Of a stretch of 64,000 bases of DNA, positions 5,298 to 36,028 are shown one piece after another; within the stretch, counting starts at the first letter, position 1; every line of letters begins with the position of its first letter. The notes beneath the pieces were generated by a model. The model was not told where the DNA came from and did not search any database. It saw nothing but the letters and a program-made list of their open reading frames with translations. Position numbers and translations under genes: made by a program. Source of the stretch: Pseudomonadota bacterium (GTDB lineage: Bacteria > Pseudomonadota > Gammaproteobacteria > Steroidobacterales > Woeseiaceae); the NCBI GenBank assembly GCA_038531945.1, contig JBCBBH010000001.1:147456-211455 (forward strand), given 5' to 3'.

Positions 5298-5338
5298 TCA
5301 ATACACCCCCATCAATGATGGGAGCCGGACAAGGGAAA

Positions 5339-5366: not shown

Positions 5367-5669
5367 CTCTCGGATTGAACATGGTTCGCACCGCCGAGTG
5401 CCGGAACAATCTGCGACACCAGCAGTGCTTCCAGAAAGTAGAGCGAAGAAACTTAGATACAGAGTATTCAACCGATAAACATCAAGCCGAAACGTTTGCC
5501 GACGCATGGGGTGACGCGGCTGCAAACTAGCGACGAGTTTCGGAACAGCGTACCATTGACACCGGTGGCAATAGTCAGATGCGAACAACAAGAAAAGACA
5601 ATTCGTACGCATCGATCTCGACATCCGACGCGTTCCAGTTCGGTTGATTCTTGGGGAAGGATTACCTGA

Positions 5670-6533: not shown

Positions 6534-6544
6534 CGGCATCAGAA

Positions 6545-7639: not shown

Positions 7640-7682
7640 CCGGTCCGGACCACCAGCCACCAATACGGGATAGCGCAGACGG

Positions 7683-11200: not shown

Positions 11201-11219
11201 GCTGACGCCCAGCCGATCA

Positions 11220-14215: not shown

Positions 14216-14376
14216 ACGCCCGCTCCCACTAAATTGGTAGGACCAATGCTAACACAATTGATCGAGATTCTGATCTGCTCGCGAACCAGCATTTCTCTGC
14301 GGTGTGTTAGAGGAAAAAGCAGGAATTCACTAATTGGCCTGTTCAATTTTCGTCGATTGATCTGTACAGTTAGCGC

Positions 14377-16692: not shown

Positions 16693-16710
16693 ATCCACAG
16701 GGGAAAAACT

Positions 16711-17466: not shown

Positions 17467-17482
17467 ACGGCAGTCAATCGAT

Positions 17483-18391
17483 ATGGCGCGAATCAGTTTA
17501 TTCGGTGAACCACTTTTGGAGCTGGCGGGTACGCGCGCAGGTGTTGTGCTTGGACCCGCCACACTCGGCGTCGCCGGAGACACGCTCAACACTGCGGTGT
17601 ACCTCGCGCGACTCGGTCACGAAGTAAACTACATCACCGCGTTGGGCACCGACACTTACTCGGATGCCCTGATCGAGCAACTCGAAGCGGAAGGCGTGTC
17701 AACCGGGAACATCGCACAGCATCCCTCTCGCGTTCCCGGACTTTACGCGATCCGAACGGATGAGAACGGCGAGCGCTATTTTACGTACTGGCGCGACCAG
17801 TCCGCCGCACGCGACTTCTTCTCGCTGCCGGATGCAGGCGAGAAATTTGCATCCGCTATGGACGGAGACCTTTTCTATTTCAGCGGTATCTCGCTTGCGA
17901 TTCTTTCGACAGATCATCGTAGTCTGCTGCTCAACATCGCGCGCCAATGCACCTCTCGGGGTGTGCGCGTCGCTTTTGATGGCAACTACCGACCGTACGG
18001 CTGGCAGTCCAGGGAAGCGGCGAGAGACTGCCTGAACGCTGTCGGCGGAATCGCGGACGTAGTGCTGCCCACCAGCGAGGATGACGACAAACTCTTCGGT
18101 GATGCGCCGCCTATTGAGCATGCGCGACGCTGGAAAGCACTCGGTGTCGATACGGTCATCGTCAAGAACGGCCCGGACGGCGCGTGGGTGCTCAGCGGAT
18201 CGAACGACCCGACTCATGTCCCGGTGGACGAGGTCATCCAACCCATCGACACAACTGGCGCGGGCGATAGCTTCAATGCGGCCTGCCTTTCCGGCCTGCT
18301 CGAGGGACAATCGCCAGCCGATGCGGCGGCCCATGGCAACCGGTTAGCCGGACAAGTGATCCAGCATCGAGGTGCCTTGATTCCCAGGTAA
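17483..18391 (+). CDS. kdgK: 2-dehydro-3-deoxygluconokinase (PfkB family)
   Basis: PfkB ribokinase-like motifs (DTTGAGDSFNAA near the C-terminus). Its position in a uronate locus. Confidence 0.8.
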   Translation: MARISLFGEPLLELAGTRAGVVLGPATLGVAGDTLNTAVYLARLGHEVNYITALGTDTYSDALIEQLEAEGVSTGNIAQHPSRVPGLYAIRTDENGERYFTYWRDQSAARDFFSLPDAGEKFASAMDGDLFYFSGISLAILSTDHRSLLLNIARQCTSRGVRVAFDGNYRPYGWQSREAARDCLNAVGGIADVVLPTSEDDDKLFGDAPPIEHARRWKALGVDTVIVKNGPDGAWVLSGSNDPTHVPVDEVIQPIDTTGAGDSFNAACLSGLLEGQSPADAAAHGNRLAGQVIQHRGALIPR

Positions 18392-18495
18392 GACGTCGAC
18401 GCTGAACGACCTAACCAATCTCACGCTCTGGTCTTACCAATTTGCAAACCGTGCTACTATCAATTCGTTATCTGTGAGTTACGAGAACGCACGGC

Positions 18496-19254
18496 ATGCC
18501 GAATGACAAGCGCCTATACAGAAACGTCAAGGCGCGGATAGAAGAACAAATCGCTAACGGCGAGTATTCAGCGGGTTCCAGACTGCCGCCGGAGCGCGAG
18601 TTAGCAGAGCGTTTCGGAGTCAGCAGACCCACCATTCGTGAAGCCATGATTGCGCTGGAAGCACTGGGTCGCGTTGACATCAAGACCGGCTCAGGCGTCT
18701 ACGTGCGCGACATCGCTCAGCCAACCGACAATCTGGATGCTCGAATCAGCGCATTCGAGCTTACCGAAGCGCGCGCACTCATCGAAGGTGAGGCTGCTGC
18801 ACTGGCAGCGACTATGATCACGGACGAGCAACTCAAGCAGCTCGAGGCTGTCATGTTCGATATGGTCGATGAAACCGAAGACGGAGAGTTGCTCTCCGAG
18901 TTCGCGGACCAGAAATTCCACCGACTGATTTCGGAAGCGACCCGCAACACGATGATGATCAGCGTGTTCGATAAGCTCTGGTATATCCGTGATCACTCGC
19001 CCGAGGTGCACGCGGCTTACCAAGCGATCTGCGAGGACGACCCGCAATCTCGAGTGGACGAACATGTTGAGATTCTTGATGCCCTCAAGTGTCGCGACCC
19101 GAAAGCCGCCCGAGAAGCGATGCACAATCATTTCGGGCGAATTCTGAACAAGCTCATCGCCGCCGATGAGCAAGCCCAGTTCGATAGAATTCGGCGCAAG
19201 ACCCAAGAGAGCCGCGAACGCTTTTCACTTGGCCATCTTTCGACAGCACCTTAA
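18496..19254 (+). CDS. GntR-family (FadR/FCD) transcriptional regulator
   Basis: wHTH (SRLPPERELAERFGVSRPTIREA) plus an FCD domain. Confidence 0.85.
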   Translation: MPNDKRLYRNVKARIEEQIANGEYSAGSRLPPERELAERFGVSRPTIREAMIALEALGRVDIKTGSGVYVRDIAQPTDNLDARISAFELTEARALIEGEAAALAATMITDEQLKQLEAVMFDMVDETEDGELLSEFADQKFHRLISEATRNTMMISVFDKLWYIRDHSPEVHAAYQAICEDDPQSRVDEHVEILDALKCRDPKAAREAMHNHFGRILNKLIAADEQAQFDRIRRKTQESRERFSLGHLSTAP

Positions 19255-19277
19255 AGCTGTACTTGTCACCACAGCGC

Positions 19278-20222
19278 CTACTGATTCGACTTCACTTTGC
19301 TGATCGAAAAGTTCGCGAAACGCACGACCTCTTCGTCCGGTCGCAGATTGTCTCTATCGAGTATTGATCGATAAATCCCCCACTTTGGACGAACAAAATG
19401 GCCGGCGGTTGTACCACGCCACAGATCAAGATCCCCCGCATCGATATCGAAAATCACCGCGTCATCGCGTAAGCGTTTGACGATCACTCTCAGGGATCCC
19501 GTATCGGAAAAGGTCGCTCGGCAATAAGCTGTCAGCCATTCACCCTCAATCTCTGACCAATCTGATCGCTGCAGGACTTGACGCTCCGGCGGCGAGCTGT
19601 GACGGACTTCGATGCCATCTTCGCCGCGTCGTTTAGAACCCGAAATTGTCAGGATTGGTTGGCTATCATCACCACCCACCGCTTTCAATTGGAACAAGTG
19701 CGTGAAGCGGCGCGACACCGTCATGCCGTGATCAATCTTGAACTTCCAACGAAAAACTAATGTCTCCCCTTCGAAGCCTTTGACGGCATCTTCAGAACTA
19801 CTGTAAGTCTTGATCTCATTTCGCTGCCGATCCGATTTGTCGCGACGATCGCGATCTATATCGTCGTCACGATGAATAACAAAAACAAAATGCGGGCCAA
19901 CCTCGGGGTCAGAGTCTTCGTAAATATGCGCGGCGCCTGGGTGGTTGATCGAGTACAAGTCGGGCGCCTCGATGGATCGCTTGCCACCGAAGGCTCGAAT
20001 CAAATCGTAGGCATCCTTGCCCTGCCCTGCGCCGTCCGCATCCAAACGCCGTTCGCTCACCACAACGAACGCGGGCGTTTTTGTCGCGGATTCGGATTCT
20101 TCGTGCGTCTCCAAGAAATCGCCGGGAGCGGTCGAACGATTCACAGGGTCAGCGCTGCATGCAACAACAATCAATACTGCTGCAACCCATCCGATCTGCT
20201 TCTGCATAACGCTCACTGACAA
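19278..20222 (-). CDS. secreted protein, possibly a concanavalin-like (PL7-like) lyase
   Basis: Signal peptide. Loose matches to the PL7 R-x-E-L / Q-x-H / K-x-G-x-Y pattern (QRNEIK, THLFQLK, PKWGIY). Weak. Confidence 0.3.
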   Translation of the reverse strand: MSVSVMQKQIGWVAAVLIVVACSADPVNRSTAPGDFLETHEESESATKTPAFVVVSERRLDADGAGQGKDAYDLIRAFGGKRSIEAPDLYSINHPGAAHIYEDSDPEVGPHFVFVIHRDDDIDRDRRDKSDRQRNEIKTYSSSEDAVKGFEGETLVFRWKFKIDHGMTVSRRFTHLFQLKAVGGDDSQPILTISGSKRRGEDGIEVRHSSPPERQVLQRSDWSEIEGEWLTAYCRATFSDTGSLRVIVKRLRDDAVIFDIDAGDLDLWRGTTAGHFVRPKWGIYRSILDRDNLRPDEEVVRFANFSISKVKSNQ

Positions 20223-24281: not shown

Positions 24282-24358
24282 GCTAACGTAGCTCAATGTG
24301 GCAGAGCAGCTGTCTTGTAAACAGCCGGTTGTGAGTTCAACCCTCACCGTTAGCTCCA
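24282..24358 (+). tRNA. tRNA-Thr(TGT)
   Basis: Full cloverleaf folded by hand. Acceptor GCTAACG/CGTTAGC, D arm TAGCTC..GAGC, anticodon loop CTTGTAA, T loop TTCAACC, CCA encoded. Confidence 0.8.
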
Positions 24359-24363
24359 TTTAT

Positions 24364-24448
24364 GGAGAGGCAATCATTGGCGAGAATAGCCGGCTGTAAC
24401 CCGGTGGTCCTTATGGCCTTGTAGGTTCAATTCCTACCCTCTCCACCA
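24364..24448 (+). tRNA. tRNA-Tyr(GTA), long variable arm
   Basis: Acceptor GGAGAGG/CCTCTCC, anticodon loop CTGTAAC, long variable arm, T arm GTAGG-TTCAATT-CCTAC, CCA. The D arm is atypical. Confidence 0.65.
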
Positions 24449-24450
24449 AC

Positions 24451-24522
24451 GGATCGGTAGCTGAGACAGAATAGCGGCTGGCTGAAGACCAGCAGACGAT
24501 GGTGCGACTCCATCCCGATCCA
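24451..24522 (+). tRNA. non-canonical tRNA-like gene, anticodon GAA (Phe-like)
   Basis: Perfect 7-bp acceptor GGATCGG/CCGATCC. Anticodon stem-loop GCTGG-CTGAAGA-CCAGC. The D loop lacks G18G19 (AGACAGAA) and the T loop is TGCGACT, so T54-Psi55-C56 is absent. No encoded CCA. Confidence 0.45.
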
Positions 24523-24526
24523 CCGT

Positions 24527-24602
24527 TGCCGTGTAGCTCAACAGGTAGAGCAGCCGACTGTTACTCAGTTTGTTGATGGTTCAAATCCATCCATGGCAGC
24601 CA
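24527..24602 (+). tRNA. tRNA-Asn(GTT)-like
   Basis: Acceptor TGCCGTG/CATGGCA with disc G and CCA. Canonical D and T arms. Anticodon loop CTGTTAC with C37 and one C-A mismatch in the anticodon stem. Confidence 0.55.
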
Positions 24603-24606
24603 CCCC

Positions 24607-24682
24607 GGGGGATTAGCTCAACGGGTAGAGCACCTCGTTTGCAACGAAAAGGCTCTCGGTTCAAATCCGAGATCCTCCACCA
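24607..24682 (+). tRNA. tRNA-Ala(TGC)-like (G3:U70 present)
   Basis: Acceptor GGGGGAT/ATCCTCC with a G3-U70 wobble. Canonical D and T arms. Anticodon loop TTTGCAA, but the anticodon stem has two C-A mismatches at its base. Confidence 0.5.
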
Positions 24683-25152
24683 AATTTCGAGTCATCGGTA
24701 TTACCGAGGCTCTTGATAGCGGCCTGGCGCTGCTAACCGTCGGTAACGGCGGGAAAGGAACGCACCCATGGCGTTTCGCCGAGACTTGAGTTTCGGTCAC
24801 TCCAGGCAAGTTCGGCCTCCGGTTGTTCTCGGCACTGTCGGGAATAGCGGCCAAGCGATACGCGGAAGTAGCGTGACTGACGCACCGGCAATGTCGGGAA
24901 TGCGGGTCCGTGAAAGAACACGTGGTGGTGCAACCCGCGACACCAATATCGTCAACCGTGAGAGGTAACGAATAGTGCAGTTCAGTGCGAGCCTTGCAGG
25001 CAAGTGCGACTGTGCAGAAGGCGAGGGTTCTGGTGGTCAGCCAGCGTCCTTTTCATCGGTCAAGTAGCCGGCAGGTGAACGACATTCGGCGTGTTGTATT
25101 TCGTCGCCCAAAAGGTGGCGAAGCGACTGAGGCGCGCACGTCGCAGTGGGAT

Positions 25153-25223
25153 TGTGATTTAGCTCAATGGCAGAGCGATTGCCCAGCAAGCAATAGGTGC
25201 AGGTTCGACTCCTGTGTTCACGA
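25153..25223 (+). tRNA. non-canonical tRNA-like gene (anticodon loop CCAGCAA, C33, A34-G35-C36)
   Basis: Canonical D arm (TAGCTCAATGGCAGAGC) and T arm (GCAGG-TTCGACT-CCTGT). Perfect anticodon stem ATTGC/GCAAT. The loop carries C33 and A34. The acceptor has one mismatch. No CCA. Confidence 0.35.
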
Positions 25224-25579
25224 CTAACGTCAAACGCAAAGACGCGCCTCGGTACGCCGTCGAAAATGGCTTAAGGCCGGAGTCTACGGACAATCCGGCG
25301 GTTGGATCAGCCGCAAGTTGATCGGACCTTGGCAGCAAGCCGCACGGTCGGGAAGCCCCCGTTTGGAGCCCGCAAGGCTCACGGTACGCAAGCTGCTGAC
25401 TAGACGTGTACTACAAGTGCATCGCCGCACTTCAAAAAAGGCAGTCATGGTCTTCGACTGTCGAGTTGGCTTCGGCCAATCGGCAGTGGACAAGCACGCA
25501 ACGAGTGTCACGCACGGCATTCGGTACTCGTGCGAACGGAGGACTACAAAGCGCCTAGTCTCAGCGCTTTTCCTTTTCC

Positions 25580-25655
25580 GCCACGATAGCTCAATCGGAA
25601 GAGCATCGGATTGTCGATCCGAAAGATGTCGGTTCGAGTCCGATCCGTGGCGCCA
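25580..25655 (+). tRNA. tRNA-Asp(GTC)
   Basis: Cloverleaf folds cleanly. Anticodon loop TTGTCGA, T loop TTCGAGT, CCA. One A-C mismatch at 7-66. Confidence 0.8.
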
Positions 25656-25661
25656 TTCTTC

Positions 25662-25737
25662 GATCCTGTGGGCTAACGGTTAGGCCACCAGACTTTCAAT
25701 CTGGGGATTGCGAGTTCGAGTCTCGCCAGGATCACCA
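25662..25737 (+). tRNA. tRNA-Glu(TTC)
   Basis: Acceptor GATCCTG/CAGGATC, anticodon loop CTTTCAA, T arm GCGAG-TTCGAGT-CTCGC, CCA. Confidence 0.8.
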
Positions 25738-25739
25738 AA

Positions 25740-25866
25740 TGACCAGTAGCTCAGCGGGTAGAGCACACGCCTGATATGCGTGAGGTCGCACGTTCAACGC
25801 CAGGCAGGATGCCTCAGTGCCGCGTAGCACAGGACGTGCGAGAGCGGCCCGTCGCCTGGTCAACCA
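25740..25866 (+). tRNA. split/interrupted tRNA-Ile(GAT)-like gene (about 68-nt insertion replacing the T arm)
   Basis: The 5' half is canonical: acceptor TGACCAG, D arm, and anticodon arm CACGC-CTGATAT-GCGTG plus variable AGGTC. The matching 3' acceptor CTGGTCA-A-CCA is found only at 25856-25866. The intervening 25788-25855 forms three hairpins rather than a T arm. Confidence 0.35.
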
Positions 25867-25872
25867 AACACT

Positions 25873-25949
25873 CTGCGTGTAGCCAAACTGGATAAGGCCC
25901 CTGACTTCGAATCAGGAGATTGAGAGTTCGAGTCCCTCCGCGCAGGCCA
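25873..25949 (+). tRNA. tRNA-Arg(TCG)
   Basis: Acceptor CTGCGTG/CGCGCAG, anticodon loop CTTCGAA, T loop TTCGAGT, CCA. One mismatch in the T stem. Confidence 0.7.
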
Positions 25950-25955
25950 AACACT

Positions 25956-26033
25956 CTGGGAGTAGCTCAGCCTGGTCAGAGCACTTGCCTTGGAAGCAAG
26001 GGGTCGCTGGTTCAAGTCCAGCCTTCCAGACCA
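25956..26033 (+). tRNA. tRNA-Pro(TGG)
   Basis: Acceptor CTGGGAG/CTTCCAG, anticodon stem-loop CTTGC-CTTGGAA-GCAAG, T arm GCTGG-TTCAAGT-CCAGC, CCA. Confidence 0.8.
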
Positions 26034-26058
26034 ACGTTTCGAAACCGGAGCGCTACAA

Positions 26059-26146
26059 GGAGACTCGCATGGCTGGCGTGCTTATCGGTCTTGAAAACCG
26101 TGATGTCCTGACGGGCGTGGGGGTTCGATCCCCACAGTCTCCGCCA
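26059..26146 (+). tRNA. tRNA-Ser(TGA), long variable arm
   Basis: Acceptor GGAGACT/AGTCTCC, anticodon CGGT-CTTGAAA-ACCG, long variable arm, T loop TTCGATC, CCA. Position 8 is C and the D arm is atypical. Confidence 0.65.
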
Positions 26147-26152
26147 ATCGAT

Positions 26153-26230
26153 GGTGTATCTAGCTTAATCGGCAAAAGCTCCGGGCCGTGACCCCGGGAG
26201 ATATCGGTTCGAGTCCGATGATTCACCCCA
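26153..26230 (+). tRNA. tRNA-His(GTG) with G-1 and C73, anticodon loop CCGTGAC (C33)
   Basis: G-1 is present and the discriminator is C, the His identity set. Anticodon stem CCGGG/CCCGG. The loop has C at position 33 instead of the near-universal U. One T-T mismatch in the acceptor. Confidence 0.6.
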
Positions 26231-26236
26231 ATTCAT

Positions 26237-26328
26237 GGAGATGTGGCCGAGTGGCTTAAGGCACTCGTTTGCTAAACGAGAGAGGGCTCGAAAGTCCTTC
26301 CCAGGTTCGAATCCTGGCATCTCCGCCA
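26237..26328 (+). tRNA. tRNA-Ser(GCT), long variable arm
   Basis: Acceptor GGAGATG/CATCTCC, D arm TGGCCGAGTGGCTTAAGGCA, anticodon CTCGT-TTGCTAA-ACGAG, long variable arm, T loop TTCGAAT, CCA. Confidence 0.8.
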
Positions 26329-26337
26329 TTTGTCTAT

Positions 26338-26408
26338 TGAGAGGGAGGCGGTCTCAGACGAGAGTCATAACCTCGTTGTCGTCGGTTCGAATCCGACCCT
26401 CTCGACCA
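26338..26408 (+). tRNA. tRNA-like gene with CAT anticodon and truncated D arm (71 nt)
   Basis: Acceptor TGAGAGG/CCTCTCG with A and CCA. T arm GTCGG-TTCGAAT-CCGAC. Anticodon loop GTCATAA. Only about 14 nt are available for the D region. Confidence 0.4.
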
Positions 26409-26477
26409 TTACTTTCTAGCTCAGCCGGCATAACGTCGCTCTCGCAGAGAGGCAGTCGGCGAGAAAATCGAACAACT

Positions 26478-26555
26478 ACGGCTATAGCTCAGCGGAAAAA
26501 GAGCGCGACCGTGCGAAGGTCGAGGACGGAGGTTCAAATCCTTCTAGCCGTGCCA
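26478..26555 (+). tRNA. tRNA-Arg(GCG)
   Basis: Perfect acceptor ACGGCTA/TAGCCGT, D arm TAGCTC..GAGC, anticodon CGACC-GTGCGAA-GGTCG, T loop TTCAAAT, CCA. Confidence 0.65.
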
Positions 26556-26561
26556 AACCAT

Positions 26562-26636
26562 TCAGCGATCGTCTAACCGGTAGGACACCAGACTTTGACT
26601 CTGGAAGTAGAGGTTCGATTCCTCTTCGCTGAGCCA
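26562..26636 (+). tRNA. tRNA-Gln(TTG)
   Basis: Perfect acceptor TCAGCGA/TCGCTGA, anticodon CCAGA-CTTTGAC-TCTGG, T arm AGAGG-TTCGATT-CCTCT, CCA. Confidence 0.8.
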
Positions 26637-26641
26637 ACAAC

Positions 26642-26715
26642 AGGTCGCTCTTCTAACGGCAAGATAACGGATTCCAAACCCGTGAATCGGTGTTCGACTC
26701 ACCGGCGGCCTGCCA
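26642..26715 (+). tRNA. tRNA-Trp(CCA)
   Basis: Acceptor AGGTCGC/GCGGCCT, anticodon loop TTCCAAA, T arm CGGTG-TTCGACT-CACCG, CCA. Confidence 0.75.
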
Positions 26716-26721
26716 ACAACT

Positions 26722-26796
26722 GATGCTGTGGTCAAATGGCAAAGGCGCGAGGTTGCAACCCTCGAGATGACAGTTCAACTCTGTCCAGCATCTCCA
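26722..26796 (+). tRNA. tRNA-Cys(GCA)
   Basis: Perfect acceptor GATGCTG/CAGCATC, anticodon CGAGG-TTGCAAC-CCTCG, T arm GACAG-TTCAACT-CTGTC, CCA. Confidence 0.8.
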
Positions 26797-26885
26797 CGGC
26801 CAGACACAGCGAGTAGTTCAAACATCGGACGCTCCGTCGACGAATCGATTTATGAGATAGCGGCCAGAAAAGGCTTTCTTGAAGC

Positions 26886-29228
26886 TTACCGCACACCCAA
26901 TGGCGTGAACTCGTATCGCTCAGAAACTGCGCATCGCTGCAATGATCGCGTGACGACGACGCCGGACGATATGAAATTCACCGTGATGTCGCGATGGTCG
27001 ATTGCACCCTGAAACGATCCTTGTGCGGACTCAATGATCAGTACCTGCTTGGAATCATCGTAGTGCAATTGGGTGACTCGACGTTCACCGCGGCGCCACG
27101 CCTCAGTACGGTCATCGTCTTCGATCAGACGAAAGTGACCATTGGCTCCGGTGTACACGTCTATCACTAACTTCGACTTGTCGATAAAGGCAGTGGTGAG
27201 TGCGTACTCTCGTTTCGGAATGATGGCACCAGCACGGACGTAAAGCGGCATGGCGTTGTTCTCTTGGGTAAGTACTTGCTCGCCATCGAGAAGGTCGCCA
27301 CCACCGAGTGGATACCAGCCACCGTTTGGAAGCCAGACGCTGGTGTGGCTTTGATCGACAACCGGTGCAACAAGAATGCTGGGGCCGAACATAAACTGAA
27401 GATCGCGCTTCCAAGCAGATTCACTGTCAGGAAACTCGAGTAACATCGGCCTTGCGATAGGCAGGCCGGTGTCGGCAGCCTCATGCGCCACCGAATACAG
27501 ATAGGGCATCAACTCATAACGCAGTCGCCCATAGCGGTGTGCTGCAGCAACGCTCGATTCACTGCGATCAAGAGGCCAGCGCGACTGACCCATACCGTGC
27601 GGTTTCCAAATGGGTGCGAACGCACCAAGCGCCATCGCCCACCGTTGATATAGCGATTCGTCGGGACCGCTGCCTTGGTCCCAATCGAAAAAGCCGCCGG
27701 CATCATGCCCCCAAAACGGGAAGCCAGCGAGACCGGCCAATTGCATCGCACGGATCTGCGACGCCATATCGTCGTCGTTGGGTTTAATATCACCGCTCCA
27801 TAGCGTCGCATAGCGTTGGGCGCCCGCGGTCATGCCGCGCACCCATACGAAAGGTCGATTGATGATCGGTGACCGATCCCAACCCTCTGCCACGAGCGCT
27901 TTGGCGATCAAAAAAAACCAGTAGTTCCGCATCTCGGCTGAACTGCGCCCATTGGCAAGCACGATGTCTTTCGGTGCCGCGCCCTGCTCGTCGAACTCGT
28001 CGATCCAAAGCGCATCACCCGGGAAGTTGAGAGCGGGATTTAGTGATTTCTCGTAAAACACCTGCCAGAACCAGCGACGAAAGTCCGGGTTCGTCAAATC
28101 CGGCGCACTTTCCGGAAACTCGATATTGTCGATCGTCGGAAGATTAAACGACGAAGTCCAGCCGTCCGAGAAACGTGCGATGCAGCGGTTGAAGTCGATC
28201 GTTGAGACCAACCCATTGCCTTCCAGCCATGTTGCCCAGGCGACAGGATCTGGGTAGCGAGTTCGGTCCCATTCGATTTTCGACTCACAACGCTTGCCGC
28301 CCGCCGCGCGCCACCGGTTATCGTTGACCACGTGATCCAACGGCAGTCCCGCAATACGGTGCGATTGGATCTTGTCTTTCCACCACGCTTCATCGGAAGG
28401 CGTATCAGAGTTGTGATCGTGACCCTTGTCCGACAGCTGCAGGCCGAACATCGACTTCATTGGCAGGCGTGGACGGCCCGTCAATTGTGTATAGCGATCG
28501 ACTACTGCCTTCAACGAAGGTCCCGCGATGAACACATAGTCCATCTGTCCGGTAAACCCGTGGGTGTCAATCGCGATGCTGTAGTCCCCATCCGCATTCA
28601 ATGCAAATCGGTTAGGGAACGTACTGTTGAGAAAGACGCCGTAGCCGCGACTCGATAGATAAAAGGGAACGATTAGCGGTGCCTGCTCGACGGGTTCGCT
28701 GCCATAGTTGCGCTCTACGATGGAACCCGAAAGATCTAGCCGATCCGCGCGCGCGAAATAGCCGTGGCCCAGACCGGTGAAGCGCTCGCCGTCCACGGGC
28801 ACGAATCGAACACCGCGTTCGTCGCCTGCTCGGTACGAGCCCATTTTTTCTTGCAGAATCGGTGTGGTGCTTTGTGCGGTCTCGAATGAGACTGCTAGCG
28901 TTTCGCGATCGATCACCACTTTGAGTTCACTCGATTGCAGTACCACTGTATCGCTGTTAGTTGCGACATCAACACTGCTCGTCCAATCGTGTGACTCGAT
29001 CATCTCGTAATAGCTATCCGGCAGAAACGCCTCGCCGTCGTGGGCGGTTTGCAGACGTACCATTGCGTCGCCGAACCACAATATTCTGAGGGTGCGCGAA
29101 CCATCTGGCGACTCGACATAGAACGCACGAGAGTCGGTATGGAACTGGGACGCTGCACAGCCGCACAGGACTAAGACGGCAGTGGCGAGCAGGCTGAGTT
29201 TCACTTGTGTTTTTGTCGGCACGTTCAT
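26886..29228 (-). CDS. glycoside hydrolase family 31 (alpha-glucosidase/alpha-xylosidase-like) lipoprotein
   Basis: GH31-like core with a candidate nucleophile region (ALWIDEFDE). Start re-set to ATG 29228 (MNVPTKTQ...LVLCGCAAS lipobox). The track's 39-aa extension overlaps the neighbouring gene. Confidence 0.7.
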   Translation of the reverse strand: MNVPTKTQVKLSLLATAVLVLCGCAASQFHTDSRAFYVESPDGSRTLRILWFGDAMVRLQTAHDGEAFLPDSYYEMIESHDWTSSVDVATNSDTVVLQSSELKVVIDRETLAVSFETAQSTTPILQEKMGSYRAGDERGVRFVPVDGERFTGLGHGYFARADRLDLSGSIVERNYGSEPVEQAPLIVPFYLSSRGYGVFLNSTFPNRFALNADGDYSIAIDTHGFTGQMDYVFIAGPSLKAVVDRYTQLTGRPRLPMKSMFGLQLSDKGHDHNSDTPSDEAWWKDKIQSHRIAGLPLDHVVNDNRWRAAGGKRCESKIEWDRTRYPDPVAWATWLEGNGLVSTIDFNRCIARFSDGWTSSFNLPTIDNIEFPESAPDLTNPDFRRWFWQVFYEKSLNPALNFPGDALWIDEFDEQGAAPKDIVLANGRSSAEMRNYWFFLIAKALVAEGWDRSPIINRPFVWVRGMTAGAQRYATLWSGDIKPNDDDMASQIRAMQLAGLAGFPFWGHDAGGFFDWDQGSGPDESLYQRWAMALGAFAPIWKPHGMGQSRWPLDRSESSVAAAHRYGRLRYELMPYLYSVAHEAADTGLPIARPMLLEFPDSESAWKRDLQFMFGPSILVAPVVDQSHTSVWLPNGGWYPLGGGDLLDGEQVLTQENNAMPLYVRAGAIIPKREYALTTAFIDKSKLVIDVYTGANGHFRLIEDDDRTEAWRRGERRVTQLHYDDSKQVLIIESAQGSFQGAIDHRDITVNFISSGVVVTRSLQRCAVSERYEFTPLGVR

Positions 29229-29242
29229 ACTCAGGTGTTCGG

Positions 29243-29974
29243 CTAGTTCGAGAAACCCCAAAGACCAATGTTGTCGAATTGAACACGCTTCGGCAGTTGC
29301 AGCAGGAAAAGCACCGCAGCGGCAAGGTCTTCGGTTTGCAACCAACCCGGTGTCATCTCATCCGCAACTTTGGGCTTTGGCACTTGCACAAGACCTGGGC
29401 ACAAGCTGTGAACCTTGATGCCGAATTCGCGGACTTCTTCCTGCAAGGCGAGTCCGAAACCAAGAACGCCGAACTTCGCGGCGCAGTAAGGCGCTGCCTC
29501 GGCGTAACCATTCTTGGCCGCTTGCGACGCGATATTGATGATGAAGCCGCTCCGGTTCGCCTGCATGGTCGGCAGCACCGCCTGACTCATAAGGAACGTA
29601 CCTTTGGTACAGGTCTCAAGTACGAGATCCCAGTTGGCCTCGGGACAATCGATGACCTTATCGGTCACACCGAGTCCCGAATTGTTGATCAAGAAATCAA
29701 CGCCGCGGTATTGAGCGAGTGTCTCTTCGACGATCGCTTGAACCTGCGCTTTGACACGCACGTCGGCAGCGACTCCGATGCAGTTCGACTCAAACTCATC
29801 GTTGAGTTCCGCCGCAGTTTCGGTGAGCAGGTCTGCACGTCGCGATGTGATCACCACGTCGACACCGCTCGCCATCAGGCCCCGAGTAATCGCCAGGCCG
29901 ATACCCGAGGCACCACCCGTGACAATGGCCGTTTTCCCTCGCAAATCGCTTGAGGAAGCAGTCAGTTCATTCAT
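29243..29974 (-). CDS. SDR-family oxidoreductase
   Basis: KTAIVTGGASGIGLAI Rossmann motif. Start re-set to the internal ATG 29974. The track start 30094 would run into the tRNA-Lys gene. Confidence 0.75.
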   Translation of the reverse strand: MNELTASSSDLRGKTAIVTGGASGIGLAITRGLMASGVDVVITSRRADLLTETAAELNDEFESNCIGVAADVRVKAQVQAIVEETLAQYRGVDFLINNSGLGVTDKVIDCPEANWDLVLETCTKGTFLMSQAVLPTMQANRSGFIINIASQAAKNGYAEAAPYCAAKFGVLGFGLALQEEVREFGIKVHSLCPGLVQVPKPKVADEMTPGWLQTEDLAAAVLFLLQLPKRVQFDNIGLWGFSN

Positions 29975-30013
29975 GGCTCGGCAGTATAGATCAGGTCTGC
30001 TTGATGCATCATC

Positions 30014-30089
30014 GAATCGATAGCTCAATCGGCAGAGCACCCGGCTCTTACCCGGGAGGTTGTGAGGTCGGAACTCACTCGATTCACCA
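30014..30089 (+). tRNA. tRNA-Lys(CTT), T loop GTCGGAA (non-canonical T54)
   Basis: Perfect acceptor GAATCGA/TCGATTC with A and CCA. Anticodon CCCGG-CTCTTAC-CCGGG. T stem GTGAG/CTCAC, but the loop starts with G rather than T. Confidence 0.6.
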
Positions 30090-30095
30090 AACAAT

Positions 30096-30170
30096 AGCCC
30101 GATAGCTCAGCAGTAGAGCACCGCTCTCACAAAGCGGAGGTCGGTGGTGCAACCCCACCTCGGGCGACCA
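30096..30170 (+). tRNA. non-canonical tRNA-like gene, anticodon CAC (Val-like)
   Basis: Anticodon CCGCT-CTCACAA-AGCGG. The D loop AGCAGTA lacks GG and the T loop is TGCAACC, the same co-variation as in the Phe-like gene at 24451. A1-G72 mismatch. CCA encoded. Confidence 0.45.
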
Positions 30171-30307
30171 CTTTTGACGCAATTCCGTCATACCGAGGTC
30201 TGAATTGTCGCCAAGTTCTGCGGACCGGGTTCTTTGAATTCCCGACTGGCGCGCAACGCTAACCATCGCCGCGCGTGTACCGAACGAAACGGCATTCTCA
30301 CCGCCAC

Positions 30308-30384
30308 TGGAAATTAGCTCAGATGGGTAGAGCATACGACTCATAATCGTACGGTCGCAGGTTCAACTCCTGCATTTCCCACCA
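30308..30384 (+). tRNA. tRNA-Met or tRNA-Ile2 (CAT)
   Basis: Anticodon TACGA-CTCATAA-TCGTA. Canonical D and T arms. The 1-72 pair is a T-C mismatch. CCA. Confidence 0.7.
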
Positions 30385-30681
30385 CTGGCTTCCACAGCCA
30401 TCCTGGCGAAAAGAACGAGAGTTCTGCGGTTCGAATCCGCCCTTGCAGAGAGATTCTGCACCACCGCGACTGTGTCCAGCGAACGGCAATGCGAGCTTGC
30501 TCGCGTTGTCTGACGCAGCAACCGGTTCGCCGGTCGCCGTGCTGGTCCGTACGCCGAACCGATTCCCGAAACGACGCCGGACTGTGTGCGCTCGCACTCG
30601 CGTCGTGTGTCGAATCGCGTCTCGGTTCCGCCTACGCACCACCGGCTGCCCGCGCACGGGTTGTGGACACAGCCGCACCCA

Positions 30682-31269
30682 TCAAAAATCCGCGCCTGAC
30701 TTCAGCGTAAACACCACAGAAATCTCAAGTTGGTTGTTGCGCTTCTCGGGCGTTGCGAGAAGCGCGAATTGACCAAGTGCTTGAGAGCGAGCGATGTCCC
30801 GTTCAGAAAGCAGAGAGTCGTCGGCAAGAAAGACCTTCGGCGCCCATTGGTTTCCGTACTCTTCGGATACCAATGTGAAGTGAATATGGGCGGCCTCGCG
30901 GCCGAGATGGTCCGCAGCCGGACGGATGGTTTGGAACACAAACTCACCGCATTCGTCTGTGATCGCCCAACCTTGCAATCGCCACATCGTGAGCTCGCGA
31001 TCGTTTCGGCCCAGTTCGAAACCTTCAGCGTCGCGATGATAGGAATGCACGACGACGTTGGGTGCGACTTCGCCAACAGGCGTAAAGACTGTCCCGCGCA
31101 CTACAAGCGGCTCACCCGGCTCATCGGGCGAACCAATCCGCGACACCGATGACAATGGAACACTCTTTGCCGCAATCGCTTCGTGCCAAGCGCGAAGCCA
31201 GGCTGGATCAACGTCGCCGGCAACAGAAGCGCCGCTCCATAGCGCTGCGCAAAGAACCCAATATTTCAT
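30682..31269 (-). CDS. secreted intradiol ring-cleavage dioxygenase-like protein
   Basis: Signal peptide. AAHIHF iron-ligand-like motif. Size and pattern resemble small protocatechuate-dioxygenase-like lipoproteins. Confidence 0.4.
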   Translation of the reverse strand: MKYWVLCAALWSGASVAGDVDPAWLRAWHEAIAAKSVPLSSVSRIGSPDEPGEPLVVRGTVFTPVGEVAPNVVVHSYHRDAEGFELGRNDRELTMWRLQGWAITDECGEFVFQTIRPAADHLGREAAHIHFTLVSEEYGNQWAPKVFLADDSLLSERDIARSQALGQFALLATPEKRNNQLEISVVFTLKSGADF

Positions 31270-31357
31270 CCACGACCCTCAGTTGGACTTCACTTCCTGT
31301 TAGATAGTAGATCGGACTGAGAGGTTTAACTCACTGACCAACAAAGGAGGTGCTTTG

Positions 31358-32644
31358 ATGGCTCACTCATCGAGCCAGGCCAGTCGCGTAGCCGACTGGG
31401 TACGAAATCGCAACGAGCAAGCACTGGCTTTGGCGCGTCGCGAGAACAAACGCATGTTTCCGACTACAGAAACATACAACGATAACAACCAAGGAGAACG
31501 CAACATGTTTTACATGAAGTTCAACGTGCGCAAGCACGAGCGTGCACTCCTGTTCCGCGACGGCGATTTCGTCAAGTTCCTTGAGCCTGGCGTGCACCGT
31601 TTCGTGACGGTTTTGCACAAGTACACGGTCGAATCGTTCGACATCACGGTACCGCTATTCGCACACCGGCTGCAGGACTTCCTGGTGGAGTCCTACGCAG
31701 AGGATGTCGCTCGCTACTTCGACGTAGTGACGACCGATGCCAATGAGATCGCCATCGTCTACCACGACGAGCGTGTCACGCTGATCATGGCTCCAGCCAC
31801 GCGCCATCTCTTCACGAAGGGTGTGCGCAAGATTCGCGTCGAGCGCTTTGCGATCACCGGTGATGTCGACGTCGACGCCCGTTTGGCCAAGCGCCTGTTG
31901 ACGGGCGACGACCGAACGTTGCAGGCGATCGCTGAGAAGGCGATCTACGCGCGCATCGTGTCGGACGGCCACGTGGGCTTGCTCTACGTGGATGGTGAAT
32001 TGAAGCGCTCACTGGCACCGGGTTACCACGCGTTTTTCGCGGTGGAGCGCGATGTCGAGGTGAAGTGCTTCGATACGCGTGTGCAGACGCTGGAAGTCTC
32101 CGGCCAGGAAATCCTGACCAAGGACAAGGTGGCTGTGCGCATCAACCTGACTGCAACCTACCAGTACGCCGATGTGGAAGCGGCTGTGCGTGCTGCGAAG
32201 GACCCGCTGGATCACCTGTACAAGGAAGTGCAGTTCGGTTTGCGCGGTGCGGTCGGTACCCGAACGCTGGATGCTTTGCTTGAAGACAAGACGGTCATCG
32301 ACACGTCGGTGGCACGTCATCTCGATGAGCACTTCGAAGCAATGGGTATCACGGTGAAGTCCGTTGGCGTGAAGGACATCATCCTGCCGGGTGACATGAA
32401 GATGTTGCTGGGTCAGGTGGTGGAGGCCGAAAAGGCCGCGCAGGCCAACGTGATTCGCCGTCGCGAAGAGACCAACGCGACCCGTTCACTTCTGAACACC
32501 GCGAAGGTCATGGAGACGAACGCTGTGGCGTTGCGTCTCAAGGAGCTCGAGACGCTCGAGAAGATCACCGACAAGATCGGCAACATCTCGGTTTACGGCG
32601 GCCTCGATGCCGTGTTGAACGACCTGGTTCGCATGAAGCAGTGA
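31358..32644 (+). CDS. SPFH/Band-7 (stomatin/flotillin-like) domain protein
   Basis: Band-7 core (ILTKDKVAVRINLTATYQ...KDIILPGDMK...EAEKAAQANVIRRREETNA). ATG 31358 has an AGGAGG RBS. A second possible start, ATG 31505, also has an AGGAG RBS. Confidence 0.8.
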   Translation: MAHSSSQASRVADWVRNRNEQALALARRENKRMFPTTETYNDNNQGERNMFYMKFNVRKHERALLFRDGDFVKFLEPGVHRFVTVLHKYTVESFDITVPLFAHRLQDFLVESYAEDVARYFDVVTTDANEIAIVYHDERVTLIMAPATRHLFTKGVRKIRVERFAITGDVDVDARLAKRLLTGDDRTLQAIAEKAIYARIVSDGHVGLLYVDGELKRSLAPGYHAFFAVERDVEVKCFDTRVQTLEVSGQEILTKDKVAVRINLTATYQYADVEAAVRAAKDPLDHLYKEVQFGLRGAVGTRTLDALLEDKTVIDTSVARHLDEHFEAMGITVKSVGVKDIILPGDMKMLLGQVVEAEKAAQANVIRRREETNATRSLLNTAKVMETNAVALRLKELETLEKITDKIGNISVYGGLDAVLNDLVRMKQ

Positions 32645-32728
32645 GTTCGACCAACCGGCGAGAGGTCAGGTGCAAGGCCTGGCCTCTCGCCATCTATTCG
32701 CCTTCGGTGTACCGAAGGCAATCCCAAC

Positions 32729-32804
32729 GGTGAATGTAGCTTAATGGCAAAGCCCCAGGCCGTGACCCTGGAAGATGCCGGTTCGACCCCGGTGGTTCAC
32801 CCCA
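32729..32804 (+). tRNA. tRNA-His(GTG) with G-1/C73, anticodon loop CCGTGAC (C33), second copy
   Basis: G-1 plus discriminator C. Anticodon stem CCAGG/CCTGG with the same C33-containing loop as the His gene at 26153. One G-G mismatch at 7-66. Confidence 0.55.
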
Positions 32805-32810
32805 AACACT

Positions 32811-32888
32811 AGCCGTCTGAAGGGAATTGGCATACCTACCTGTCTTAGAAACAGGTGCTTCTCGGTTCGACTCCGAGGGCGGCTACCA
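32811..32888 (+). tRNA. Leu-anticodon (TAG) tRNA with short variable arm (class-I-like)
   Basis: Leu-type D loop (GGAATTGGCA) and A73. Perfect anticodon stem CCTGT/ACAGG with loop CTTAGAA. It has a 5-nt variable loop in place of the long arm that all bacterial tRNA-Leu normally carry. Confidence 0.55.
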
Positions 32889-32943
32889 ATTTTTCTGGGC
32901 AGAGCTGACTGGGCGTCTTCAGGGCGTGGTACCAATGGCGTGA

Positions 32944-34032
32944 ATGCCTACTCCTTGGGTTCACTCTCGTCTTTATTCGTGGCCGATACGCACGCACAAT
33001 CAGGTAGGGTGCATTGAGTCGAGCATCGGAATTAGCAGACGGCGAATAGTTGTGACCACACGAACTCGAAACGTTCTCCTGTTCGGCCTACTCGTTGTGG
33101 TCGGAATCGCAATGGTCAAGATACGAAATCCGAGCGTCGACCTCGCTGTTGATCGACAAGATATCGGCAGCACTGTATCCGCGGAGGAAATCCCAAAACC
33201 AGGGGCGATAACAACTCTGGCCGACGCGCCCGGCGATGCGTTCGCTGATGCCGCAGCTTCAGCGGTCGCTACCGTCCCTGACGAGACCTGCGTCCGAGCC
33301 AAGGACGTGGAGATGCTGCTCTTGAGTTCCAGTGAGCCGCAGCGAATTCAAAACCTGATGTCCTACGGAGAGTGGTTCAACGACTACGCCGGCGTCGATG
33401 AAGCAACACTCGAATCACTTGCTGATCAACTCGACACCAAGGCGATGATCGTCCTTGGGACTCAAGCCGAGTTTCGTGCCATCGGTAGGGACCCTGCACT
33501 GGCGGTCGAGAAACTCAACGGAAGTGCCGTGAGAGAGAATGTCCAAAACAATGCCTTTGACGCTTGGTTGCGAGACCGAGAACGTATCGATGCCCATCGA
33601 AAAGATGTCGAAGCAGCTCGCGACTGGTATTACCAAGCTGCACTCCTTGGCGATCTCGGCGCTCTCCCTTTTCTTGGTGACGTACAGCTGGCGTTAGAAG
33701 AAACACCCGTAAGTCTCGGTTGGATTAGCCAAGAGGACTTCGATCAACTCCCTCGGCAGGCGCAAAACCCTAATGAGGTGCGTGGCGCTTATGGTGTGGC
33801 GGCTACTCGAATCGCTCCGAACGCCGGTACTGGATACGCTGGTTTACTACAGGGAATCTACGAGATATCGCTTACGCATAAGCCGTTCGCGGACGCGTTA
33901 GCGGAACAGTACAAACGCGACCGCGCCGATCTCGGCCTGCCACCGCTTGAGGTTCCACCGGCTGAGATTTCTCTGGATGAGTTAAGAGACCTTGCGGCAC
34001 GGCTCTGTCCTGGCGAAGAAGATTTCCTCTGA
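32944..34032 (+). CDS. hypothetical membrane-anchored protein
   Basis: N-terminal TM segment (VLLFGLLVVVGIAMV) and an acidic/helical C-terminal domain. No recognisable family. The start is uncertain. Confidence 0.4.
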   Translation: MPTPWVHSRLYSWPIRTHNQVGCIESSIGISRRRIVVTTRTRNVLLFGLLVVVGIAMVKIRNPSVDLAVDRQDIGSTVSAEEIPKPGAITTLADAPGDAFADAAASAVATVPDETCVRAKDVEMLLLSSSEPQRIQNLMSYGEWFNDYAGVDEATLESLADQLDTKAMIVLGTQAEFRAIGRDPALAVEKLNGSAVRENVQNNAFDAWLRDRERIDAHRKDVEAARDWYYQAALLGDLGALPFLGDVQLALEETPVSLGWISQEDFDQLPRQAQNPNEVRGAYGVAATRIAPNAGTGYAGLLQGIYEISLTHKPFADALAEQYKRDRADLGLPPLEVPPAEISLDELRDLAARLCPGEEDFL

Positions 34033-34090
34033 CCAACAGTCTTGGTCAACACCATGATCGAGCTTGGCTCGACAAATGGCCTCAACCAAA

Positions 34091-34167
34091 GCGCAGCTGA
34101 CGGGAAAGGCATACCTGGATAGCTCAAACCTATTCGTTTCCCCGTTCGAATCGGGGGCTGCGCACCA
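34091..34167 (+). tRNA. Leu-anticodon (CAA) tRNA-like gene with short variable arm, 45 nt upstream of the HNH-RtcB operon
   Basis: Perfect acceptor GCGCAGC/GCTGCGC with A73 and CCA. T arm CCCCG-TTCGAAT-CGGGG. Anticodon GATAG-CTCAAAC-CTATT. The D region TGACGGGAAAGGCATACCT is paralogous to that of the TAG Leu-like gene. 5-nt variable loop. Confidence 0.5.
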
Positions 34168-34211
34168 ACTCCCTCTGAACAATCCACATTGTTGAAGTCG
34201 TGAGAAGAACG

Positions 34212-34799
34212 ATGATGGAACAAATTTTGAAACTCGATGTGGGCGGAAGACCGATTGGTTGGATCACCCAGGAACAAGGCGCGCTGCTGTATTGCAGAGA
34301 TCAAGTCGCGTGGGAAGCCGGCGACCAGACGATCGTGTTACGCGGTGGATTCTCGCGTGTGACGGGACACCGTTCGATGTTGACGATCAACAGTATCGTC
34401 GCGACCACGAGCATCGACCAGTCGGCAGACAACTGGGCCGGCGGAACGGCGCTGACGAACGCGGCACTGTTCCGACGGGATCAGTACCTGTGCTTGTACT
34501 GCGGTGGATCGTTCAGCCGATCCGCGTTGACGCGAGATCACATCGTTCCGGTTTCGCGCGGCGGTGAGGACTGCTGGGAAAACGTTGTGACCGCGTGTCG
34601 CGCCTGCAATCAGCGGAAGGCGGATTTTCTGCTAGCCGAGTGCGGCATGTCGTTGCTGGCAACACCGTACGTCCCTAACCGAGCCGAAGGATTGATTTTG
34701 AATAATCGGCGAATTCTTTGCGACCAGATGGCGTTTCTGCAAACGCGCGTCGGTCCGCAAAGTCGAGTCGCTAGGACGAACAAGAGAGAAGAACAATGA
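34212..34799 (+). CDS. HNH endonuclease
   Basis: CLYCGG...TRDHIVPVSRGGEDCWENVVTACRACNQRK is a classic HNH/HNN zinc-finger nuclease motif. Its stop overlaps the rtcB start (ATGA). The track start is GTG 34200 and the ATG is at 34212. Confidence 0.8.
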   Translation: MMEQILKLDVGGRPIGWITQEQGALLYCRDQVAWEAGDQTIVLRGGFSRVTGHRSMLTINSIVATTSIDQSADNWAGGTALTNAALFRRDQYLCLYCGGSFSRSALTRDHIVPVSRGGEDCWENVVTACRACNQRKADFLLAECGMSLLATPYVPNRAEGLILNNRRILCDQMAFLQTRVGPQSRVARTNKREEQ

Positions 34800-36028
34800 A
34801 CAACGTAACGGAAAACTACGACGTCCTGTTTGATGGGGGCGTACCTGTAAAGCTGTGGACGCGTGGCGTCCCAACAGACGAACGCGCACTGGATCAACTG
34901 CGTAAGGCAGCCTCGATGCCGTTTATCTACAAGCACATCGCAGTCATGCCGGATATGCACGTCGGTAAGGGCTCGACCATTGGTTCGGTGATCCCAACCA
35001 AGGGCGCAATCATTCCTGCCGCGGTCGGTGTGGATATCGGTTGCGGCATGATGGCCGTGCGCACGAGTCTTAACGCGTCTGACCTGCCCGACAACCTGTT
35101 CGCGATTCGTTCGGCAATTGAAGCGGCGGTGCCGCACGGTCGGTCGAGCGGTCGCGGGAAGCGGGATAAGGGCTCGTGGGGCGAAGCGCCCGAGGCATCG
35201 TTGGATGCCTGGGGTAGCGGTCTCGCCGCGCGGTTCTCGCAACTGGTAGAGAAGCACCCTCGCCTTGCGAAGACGAACAACTTGAACCACCTGGGAACGC
35301 TCGGAACAGGCAACCACTTCGTTGAAGTGTGCCTGGACGAAGCGCAATCGGTTTGGTTCATGTTGCACTCGGGTTCGCGCGGTGTCGGTAACGCGATCGG
35401 GATGCACTTCATTGCGCTGGCTCAGCGTGAGATGGAGCGCTTCTTCATCCACCTGCCGGATCGGGATCTCGCCTACCTTGCCGAAGGCACCGAACACTTC
35501 GACGACTACGTCGAAGCGGTCGGTTGGGCGCAGGACTTCGCGCTGGCAAATCGTCGCGTGATGATGCTGCACACGATCCGTGCGGTGCGCGATGCGCTTG
35601 CTCGCCACTTCGATGCGGAACTTGAGGCCGTGAACTGTCACCACAACTACGTGGAGCGGGAGCATCACTTCGGTGAGAACGTACTCGTGACGCGCAAGGG
35701 TGCGGTCAAGGCAACGAAGGGTACGATGGGCATTATCCCAGGCTCGATGGGCGCCAAGTCGTTCATTGTGCGCGGACTCGGAAACGAGGAGAGCTTCTGC
35801 TCTTGTTCGCACGGTGCCGGTCGCATCATGTCGCGGACGCAAGCGAAGAAGGCGGTGTCGTTGGCCGAGCACAAGGCGGCGGTGGCGCACGTCGAATGCC
35901 GGGTCGATGCCGATGTTGTGGATGAAACGCCATCCGCGTACAAGGACATCGATGCGGTGATGGCGGCCCAGGATGATCTCGTTGAGATCGTCCACACGCT
36001 ACGCCAGGTCGTTTGCGTGAAGGGCTAA
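34796..36028 (+). CDS. rtcB: RNA-splicing ligase RtcB (3'-phosphate/5'-OH RNA ligase)
   Basis: RtcB family motifs include ...HNYVEREHHFG... and ...CSCSHGAGRIMSR. About 410 aa. Confidence 0.9.
   Translation: MNNVTENYDVLFDGGVPVKLWTRGVPTDERALDQLRKAASMPFIYKHIAVMPDMHVGKGSTIGSVIPTKGAIIPAAVGVDIGCGMMAVRTSLNASDLPDNLFAIRSAIEAAVPHGRSSGRGKRDKGSWGEAPEASLDAWGSGLAARFSQLVEKHPRLAKTNNLNHLGTLGTGNHFVEVCLDEAQSVWFMLHSGSRGVGNAIGMHFIALAQREMERFFIHLPDRDLAYLAEGTEHFDDYVEAVGWAQDFALANRRVMMLHTIRAVRDALARHFDAELEAVNCHHNYVEREHHFGENVLVTRKGAVKATKGTMGIIPGSMGAKSFIVRGLGNEESFCSCSHGAGRIMSRTQAKKAVSLAEHKAAVAHVECRVDADVVDETPSAYKDIDAVMAAQDDLVEIVHTLRQVVCVKG

Follow-up and report, generated by a model that had tools for sequence, protein, structure and literature searches.

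The window analysed here, a stretch of 64,000 nucleotides of a bacterial chromosome, holds a long tRNA array on the plus strand (24282..34167) that includes two tRNA-His(GUG) genes with C at position 33 of the anticodon loop. ARAGORN makes 23 calls in the array, all on one strand, and 17 of them are crowded into 24282-26796. Over 9,886 bp this amounts to about 2.3 calls per kb, the make-up of an L-array as defined by at least 20 tRNA genes at no fewer than 2 per kb on a single strand. An encoded 3' CCA or CC ends 22 of the 23 calls, the exception being a tRNA-like insert (25153-25224) in a GOLLD RNA, which has neither, and the first base is other than G in many of the array tRNAs. Neither a tRNA-Gly nor an intact tRNA-Ile is found among the 23 calls, and many needed anticodons are missing, with odd ones such as Arg(GCG) present; thus another set of tRNAs must exist elsewhere in the genome. 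The tRNA-Arg(GCG) gene itself (26478-26555, plus strand) combines an anticodon that is unusual in bacteria with G at position 32, in the loop GUGCGAA. A decayed tRNA-Ile(GAU)-like pseudogene with a broken T arm lies between tRNA-Glu and tRNA-Arg (25740..25807, plus strand) and scores 28.8 bits with the Rfam tRNA covariance model, slightly short of its gathering score of 29. Short A-rich spacers follow the encoded CCA at several places in 24282-34167 (AACACT twice, AACCAT, ACAACA, ACAACT and AACAAT), and the junction CCCCAAACA also occurs 3' of tRNA-His in relatives from metagenomes. This recurring spacer may be a processing signal.

Between the tRNA genes of the array lie genes for a GH31 protein, an SDR protein, a dioxygenase and an SPFH protein, and an unknown ORF. 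The SPFH/Band-7 gene (31355..32644, plus strand; Pfam PF01145, 9e-29) stands directly upstream of the second tRNA-His gene. The order of SPFH followed by tRNA-His is kept in a 2.7-kb contig from a related MAG (L075; JBCAZH010000174.1, Pseudomonadota bacterium J06563_6), which is about 97% identical across the SPFH, tRNA-His and tRNA-Leu genes. On the 3' side of the array lie an HNH endonuclease gene of the HNH_5 type (34200..34799, plus strand; Pfam PF14279, 8.7e-16) and a gene for an RtcB RNA ligase of the 3'-phosphate/5'-OH tRNA repair family (34796..36028, plus strand; phrog_1075, 7e-144; NCBIfam RtcB), the end of the first overlapping the start of the second by 4 nt. Relatives of this RtcB occur on 409 viral contigs, the best 80 of these being about 59-67% identical, and some of the viral relatives adjoin tRNA arrays and GOLLD-like RNAs (L121, L140). 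HNH_5 genes adjoin tRNA-His genes with C33 in two further loci (L095 and L031), and HNH genes are also present in mycobacterial (PMC6582537), Anabaena and phage arrays.

A GOLLD-type large RNA of a short form, 484 nt in length, lies within the array (25084..25567, plus strand; RF02032, 131.6 bits, E = 2e-36). The match spans the full model (1-416), yet it does not reach the gathering score of 150. With that cut-off, Rfam finds no GOLLD in 18 related loci, and an nhmmer search with the GOLLD of the window finds seven clear homologues in related gammaproteobacterial arrays (E = 1e-58 to 1e-102). The setting in a tRNA island and the tRNA in a variable linker are those of GOLLD RNAs, in which linker tRNAs are a known feature (PMC12286853). 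The insert, called by ARAGORN as Ala-AGC (25153..25224, plus strand), ends in CTA in place of CCA, and its acceptor stem is weak and mismatched. Its D and T arms are conserved across the homologues (L107, L066, L035, L237, L059, L007, L024). The loop is CCAGCAA in the window, with C33 at 25184, and CTCCAAA, an 8-nt loop, CTGATAA, CTCGAAA, TTGATGT or CTCTTAA in the homologues. Between close relatives the apparent anticodon thus varies among AGC, CCA, an 8-nt CCAA loop, GAU, CGA and CUU. Most of the relatives' inserts have U33, and three of them keep the 3' CCA. Judged by this comparison, the insert of the window is probably a degenerate or purely structural tRNA-like domain. The first-pass annotation had grouped this element with the two tRNA-His genes as a third instance of C33; the loop and its C33 are as it described them, and the grouping does not hold, because the loop of the insert is hypervariable and its C33 is unrelated to that of tRNA-His.

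Among the chromosomal genes of the window are those for a TonB-dependent receptor, LacI, a TRAP transporter, alginate and heparinase-type lyases, GH31, an ECF sigma factor, RhlE and FolE2. Upstream of the array, window positions 1-20000 carry the TonB receptor, LacI, TRAP DctM, an SDR protein, a PfkB kinase and GntR regulators, together with chondroitinase-B-like and heparinase II/III-alginate lyases; these genes probably make up a cluster for the utilisation of alginate/uronate. The possibility that the region is a phage genome was rejected, as 24-35 kb has no megablast match in INPHARED and the genes on either side are those of ordinary bacterial metabolism. A BLAST search of the array against plasmids and phages likewise returned nothing beyond generic tRNA similarity. 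The distribution of related tRNA-His genes and arrays is patchy and horizontal, over at least six phyla and viral contigs, and homologues of the GOLLD RNA together with the array are found in several gammaproteobacterial MAGs. The combination of GOLLD, HNH and array matches mycobacterial clusters (PMC6582537) and L-arrays (PMC8421152) and is therefore of the published type. The array is thus a known, horizontally transferred long array module (GOLLD, HNH and RtcB) on a bacterial chromosome.

Two tRNA-His genes with C33

Few nucleotides in biology are as conserved as U33, which is normally left alone in tRNA engineering. In the array it is present as T33 in all 20 of the true tRNA genes other than the two for tRNA-His, as read from the sequence. 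The first tRNA-His(GUG) gene, His#1, occupies 26153..26230 (plus strand; ARAGORN 26154-26230 plus G-1 at 26153; Rfam tRNA 53.6 bits) and the second, His#2, 32729..32804 (plus strand; ARAGORN 32730-32804 plus G-1 at 32729; Rfam tRNA 47.5 bits). Both fold into a cloverleaf with the GUG anticodon in a 7-nt loop, a result on which ARAGORN, Rfam and covariation agree. Both also contain the bacterial HisRS identity set, with the G at 26153 or 32729 as G-1 opposite C73, and both end in CAC-C-CCA, that is, C73 followed by an encoded CCA. The two genes are 81% identical, and each has a single mismatch in its acceptor stem, U4:U69 in His#1 and G7:G66 in His#2.

The anticodon loop is identical in the two genes, C32-C33-G34-U35-G36-A37-C38 (CCGUGAC). 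Position 33, at which a canonical elongator tRNA has the U of the U-turn, is C in both (26187 in His#1, 32761 in His#2). In the alignment to the Rfam tRNA model this C falls in the column of the consensus U33, and its posterior probability there is maximal. The anticodon arms are CCGGG-CCGTGAC-CCCGG and CCAGG-CCGTGAC-CCTGG, and pair 29:41 is G-C in His#1 and A-U in His#2. Seventeen distinct C33 arms were collected from relatives. In these, the canonical 5-bp anticodon stem is paired in 97.6% of cases and four of the five pairs show compensatory (double) changes; the third pair, 29:41, is A-U in eight arms, G-C in six, C-G in two and U-A in one. Control registers slid by 1-3 columns pair in merely 20-58% of cases. 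RNAalifold likewise recovered the cloverleaf from 18 full-length C33 tRNA-His sequences, with compensatory changes in 14 of 19 pairs. The first-pass annotation, which had read G-1, C73 and the CCGTGAC loop with C33 in both genes, was therefore correct on each of these points. It had also raised an alternative fold with U at position 33 and better covariation as the way in which its reading might fail; such folds are ruled out by the slid-register control.

The same evidence bears on whether the genes could be pseudogene relics, or C33 a sequencing or assembly artefact. In favour of a relic or artefact are the acceptor-stem mismatch in each gene and the presence in the same array of a decayed tRNA and the degenerate GOLLD insert. 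Against it, the Rfam scores are well above threshold, and the four stems, G-1, C73, CCA and the invariants of the T and D loops are intact. The tRNA-His on JBCAZH010000174.1, an independently assembled MAG contig, is identical to His#2, and the CCGUGAC loop recurs in dozens of independent assemblies, with compensatory substitutions that imply continued selection for the fold. We regard a relic or artefact as very improbable.

Descent and independent origins of C33

Genomes, one per species, were scanned with the pattern GGCCGTGACCC-N10-11-GGTTCGA, in which C33 is fixed. The scan returned 106 loci, about 27 of which are true tRNA-His genes with the CCGUGAC loop. Nearly all of these lie in dense arrays, with 5-29 tRNAs per 8 kb, and they come from Gamma- and Betaproteobacteria, Myxococcota, Planctomycetota, Elusimicrobia and Actinomycetota. 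In total, at least 30 tRNA-His genes besides the two of the window have this loop; they come from many phyla and almost all are array-borne; two that seem to stand alone adjoin HNH_5 genes and lie at the edge of the retrieved sequence. One dense array with a C33 tRNA-His, in the Elusimicrobia MAG JACQPK010000336.1, also has a gene for a bacterial RNase P RNA inside it (L047 1477-1803, minus strand; 121.6 bits). In IMG/VR, a looser C33 pattern (N10-12) gave 2 true matches and the U33 version about 32, mostly from phage arrays, which indicates that C33 is the minority and derived form of the array/phage-type loop C-Y-GUGAC.

A metagenome scan anchored on the D arm and T loop left position 33 free; it is small, and it is the sole sample there that is unbiased at this position. 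It yielded 10 tRNA-His genes with C33 and 9 with U33. Those at least 0.76 identical to either gene of the window all have C33, and those at or below 0.75 all have U33. New compensatory stems also appear among these relatives (CCACG/CGTGG and CCGCG/CGCGG). In viral contigs a position-33-free pattern found four genes, all with U33 and none from the window's clade, and loci anchored on viral RtcB gave three tRNA-His genes, all with U33, a number too small to use. By this split, C33 is inherited, and fixed, in the clade to which the tRNA-His genes of the window belong. The comparison with relatives that the first-pass annotation had proposed thus gave a clear outcome, close tRNA-His genes having C33 and distant ones U33. 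Its view that the same change had recurred in paralogs is not borne out, as His#1 and His#2 both go back to a single C33 lineage and inherited the C from it. Its further suggestion of a functional variant rather than an error stands as far as error is concerned, given intact genes, clade-wide fixation of C33 and compensating stems.

Outside the window's clade, U33-to-C has, on comparison of the tRNA sequences, arisen independently several times. When 56 unique tRNA-His sequences of the array type are placed on a neighbour-joining tree, position 33 has to change state about nine times, a noisy estimate as the sequences are of 76 nt. One C33 gene (L031) is 86% identical to a U33 gene (L220), and another (L004) has the same acceptor stem as the U33 tRNA-His of Streptomyces phage Shaeky. 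The tRNA-His of Mycobacterium phage BackyardAgain (MT818416.1 92094-92167; L249 3033-3106) has C33 and differs from that of its aligned cluster-C relatives QBert and ArcherS7 at position 33 only; by BLAST, 157 cluster-C phage records are about one base away from it. The C33 of BackyardAgain is either one half of a near-isogenic U33/C33 pair that exists in nature or the result of a sequencing error. The cluster-C mycobacteriophages were also considered as a large C33 group, an idea that was dropped because only BackyardAgain has C33, QBert and ArcherS7 having U33.

C33 extends to other array tRNAs. In a survey of array loci L001-L257 (e.g. L007, L009, L047, L049, L083, L208 and L216), 51 of 985 unique non-His array tRNAs have C33 (5.2%) and one has a purine at position 33. 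The isotypes concerned are chiefly Val(UAC/GAC), Gly(GCC), Ile(GAU) and Glu, with Asn also represented. Since C33 is found at about 5% over many isotypes, it is not specific to tRNA-His. C33 and U33 array tRNAs have a canonical T loop at similar rates (92% and 90%), and their stem mismatches are similar. Other positions regarded as universal deviate as well, U54 in 5% of array tRNAs, U55 in 2.6% and A58 in 2.9%, which fits a relaxed constraint and implies that part of C33 reflects general relaxation. A C33 tRNA-Tyr was also observed on a plasmid of M. intracellulare.

Queuosine, nucleases and drift as possible accounts of C33

The account that we prefer, with modest confidence, is that C33 is a lineage-fixed, tolerated pyrimidine swap in a functional accessory tRNA-His, and that loss of the Tgt determinant is its likely effect. 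Both genes would be intact accessory tRNA-His isodecoders of a horizontally acquired, phage-type array module. On this account one array-type tRNA-His lineage with the ancestral loop C-U-G-U-G-A-C gave rise to both, and a U33-to-C transition occurred and became fixed. The C33 tRNA-His presumably retains charging by HisRS through G-1:C73 and presumably still decodes CAY codons. Since array tRNAs put up with C at position 33 and almost never with a purine, any pyrimidine there seems to suffice for the anticodon loop to work. As background, L-array tRNAs of Anabaena are aminoacylated and polysome-associated (PMC8421152). The Anabaena array, pCC7120delta, was considered as experimental support for C33 and set aside, as its tRNA-His has U33; with U33 throughout, that array is silent on C33.

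The predicted effect on Tgt follows from the requirement of the E. coli enzyme for U33-G34-U35, as Nakanishi 1994 is cited for it in PMC1635277. Both tRNA-His genes depart from the determinant so quoted, their loop having C33-G34-U35. Taken in that form, the determinant would be removed by C33, and G34 is predicted to be unmodified and to lack queuosine. This is the firmest prediction that C33 allows from the gene sequences and the cited determinant. A G34 without queuosine would, if that determinant applies, set the array tRNA-His chemically apart from the host tRNA-His. Queuosine avoidance was rejected as a general cause of C33. In this array the remaining Tgt substrates (the tRNAs for Tyr, Asn and Asp) keep U33-G34-U35, and C33 is otherwise found mostly in tRNAs on which Tgt does not act, such as those for Val, Gly, Ile and Glu, so that avoidance of queuosine cannot account for C33 in general.

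A possible account, though one to which we give distinctly less credence than to a tolerated swap, is that array C33 has been selected to hide the tRNAs from host anticodon-loop enzymes, either Tgt or a tRNase. The tRNase would be of an undescribed type, dependent on U33 or cutting the 32/33 bond. The class so hidden would consist of this tRNA-His clade plus about 5% of other array tRNAs, which would translate without U33.

The proposal of the first-pass annotation, nuclease evasion, is narrower, and we consider it unlikely. It would have an anticodon-loop nuclease of the host, a phage or a competitor deplete the host tRNA-His, and the array copy with C33 resist and sustain translation. The nuclease would have to require U33 or to cut the 32/33 or the 33/34 bond, with RtcB mending the cuts that remain. 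No nuclease specific for tRNA-His is known to us to require U33. PADLOC and NCBIfam recognised no defence or toxin system around the array, and a nearby "helicase" is RhlE. An RtcB repair ligase does lie 2 kb downstream, C33 is clade-fixed with several independent origins, and the pyrimidines of the loop outside the anticodon are all C (C32, C33 and C38). Arrays and phage tRNAs have been proposed to serve anti-defence, with substitutions in the anticodon loop (PMC10264068, PMC12803027), and the CdiA-CT toxin of EC536 cuts exactly the 32/33 bond (PMC11724271). However, colicin E5, which has tRNA-His among its targets and needs only YGU, a pyrimidine 5' of GU, cuts U33C minihelices like the wild type (PMC1635277), and cleavage by the K. 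lactis gamma-toxin is unaffected by U33C (PMC2275089). C33 is, moreover, spread over many isotypes (about 5%) and not focused on known nuclease targets. Nuclease evasion by C33 is thus plausible in outline only.

We give about the same low weight to nearly neutral drift, by which array tRNAs that are rarely used and weakly constrained would acquire a C33 that still decodes and becomes fixed without benefit. This would suit the patchiness of C33, of which about 5% is found, scattered across many isoacceptors, in four samples with different anchors, and the comparable deviation at U54, U55 and A58. It would also suit the singleton U33C of BackyardAgain, with U33 in two aligned relatives and 157 records about one base different, and the outright pseudogenes that arrays hold (25740-25807 here; 3 of 26 in Anabaena, PMC8421152). 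In contrast, no reversion of C33 is seen in a clade whose members differ by up to about 24% and whose stems show compensatory changes. Position 33 is strongly filtered for pyrimidines, with 83 C against 1 purine, and C33 tRNAs are no more degenerate than U33 tRNAs. A test of drift has low statistical power, given the small size of the sample in which position 33 was left free.

C-to-U editing of tRNA takes place elsewhere, at archaeal C8 and in trypanosomal and organellar anticodon loops, but restoration of U33 in the mature tRNA by deamination after transcription has a negligible probability here, given that no deaminase gene is seen in the island and that we know of no bacterial or phage tRNA C33 deaminase.

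The C33 difference may be selected, as insulation from host anticodon-loop enzymes, or merely tolerated. If it is functional, the genes would represent a class of elongator tRNAs of bacteria and mobile elements in which C33 has arisen several times and been fixed in nature, and a pyrimidine at position 33 would be sufficient in vivo. If it is merely tolerated, C33 would serve as a gauge of relaxed selection on array tRNAs. Natural U33/C33 allele pairs are available for experiment, for example BackyardAgain as compared to QBert and ArcherS7. They offer a handle on the purpose of phage and array tRNAs, be it insulation from host modification and cleavage enzymes or redundancy.

Relation to known systems

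Arrays, GOLLD inserts and HNH and RtcB companions of these kinds have been described before. What appears to be undescribed is the tRNA-His clade with C33, together with the C33 frequency of roughly 5% among array tRNAs: full-text searching of the literature turned up no account of C33 in tRNAs of phages or arrays, and position 33 goes unmentioned in key papers on arrays, GOLLD and phage tRNAs (e.g. PMC6582537, PMC10264068, PMC12803027).

The GOLLD RNA of the window resembles those published (Behra 2019, PMC6582537; Kretsch 2025, PMC12286853) in its place in the middle of an array, beside HNH, and in its tRNA-like or pseudo-tRNA insert. It differs in being a 484-nt form with a score below gathering, in an insert loop that varies between close relatives and in the loss of CCA. 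Phage tRNAs that have been proposed to escape nucleases (van den Berg 2023, PMC10264068) are similar to the tRNA-His genes described here in that they are borne on a mobile element and their loop departs from the cellular consensus while the anticodon and identity elements are kept. U33 and tRNA-His are not discussed in that study, however, and by published substrates U33C is still sensitive to colicin E5 and the gamma-toxin.

Published long tRNA arrays, like that of the window, exceed 20 tRNA genes and 2 per kb, all on a single strand, with atypical sequences and a presumably supernumerary role; they occur in scattered species of many phyla, and HNH endonuclease genes lie inside or beside them. 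The array of the window differs in being interrupted by metabolic genes, in carrying RtcB and in its C33 tRNAs, all tRNAs of the Anabaena array having U33. A further parallel is found in eukaryotes, where the cytoplasmic initiator tRNA-Met carries C33, which may help to discriminate against elongation. That tRNA is likewise a natural and functional C33 class, whereas the genes of the window are elongators of a bacterium or mobile element.
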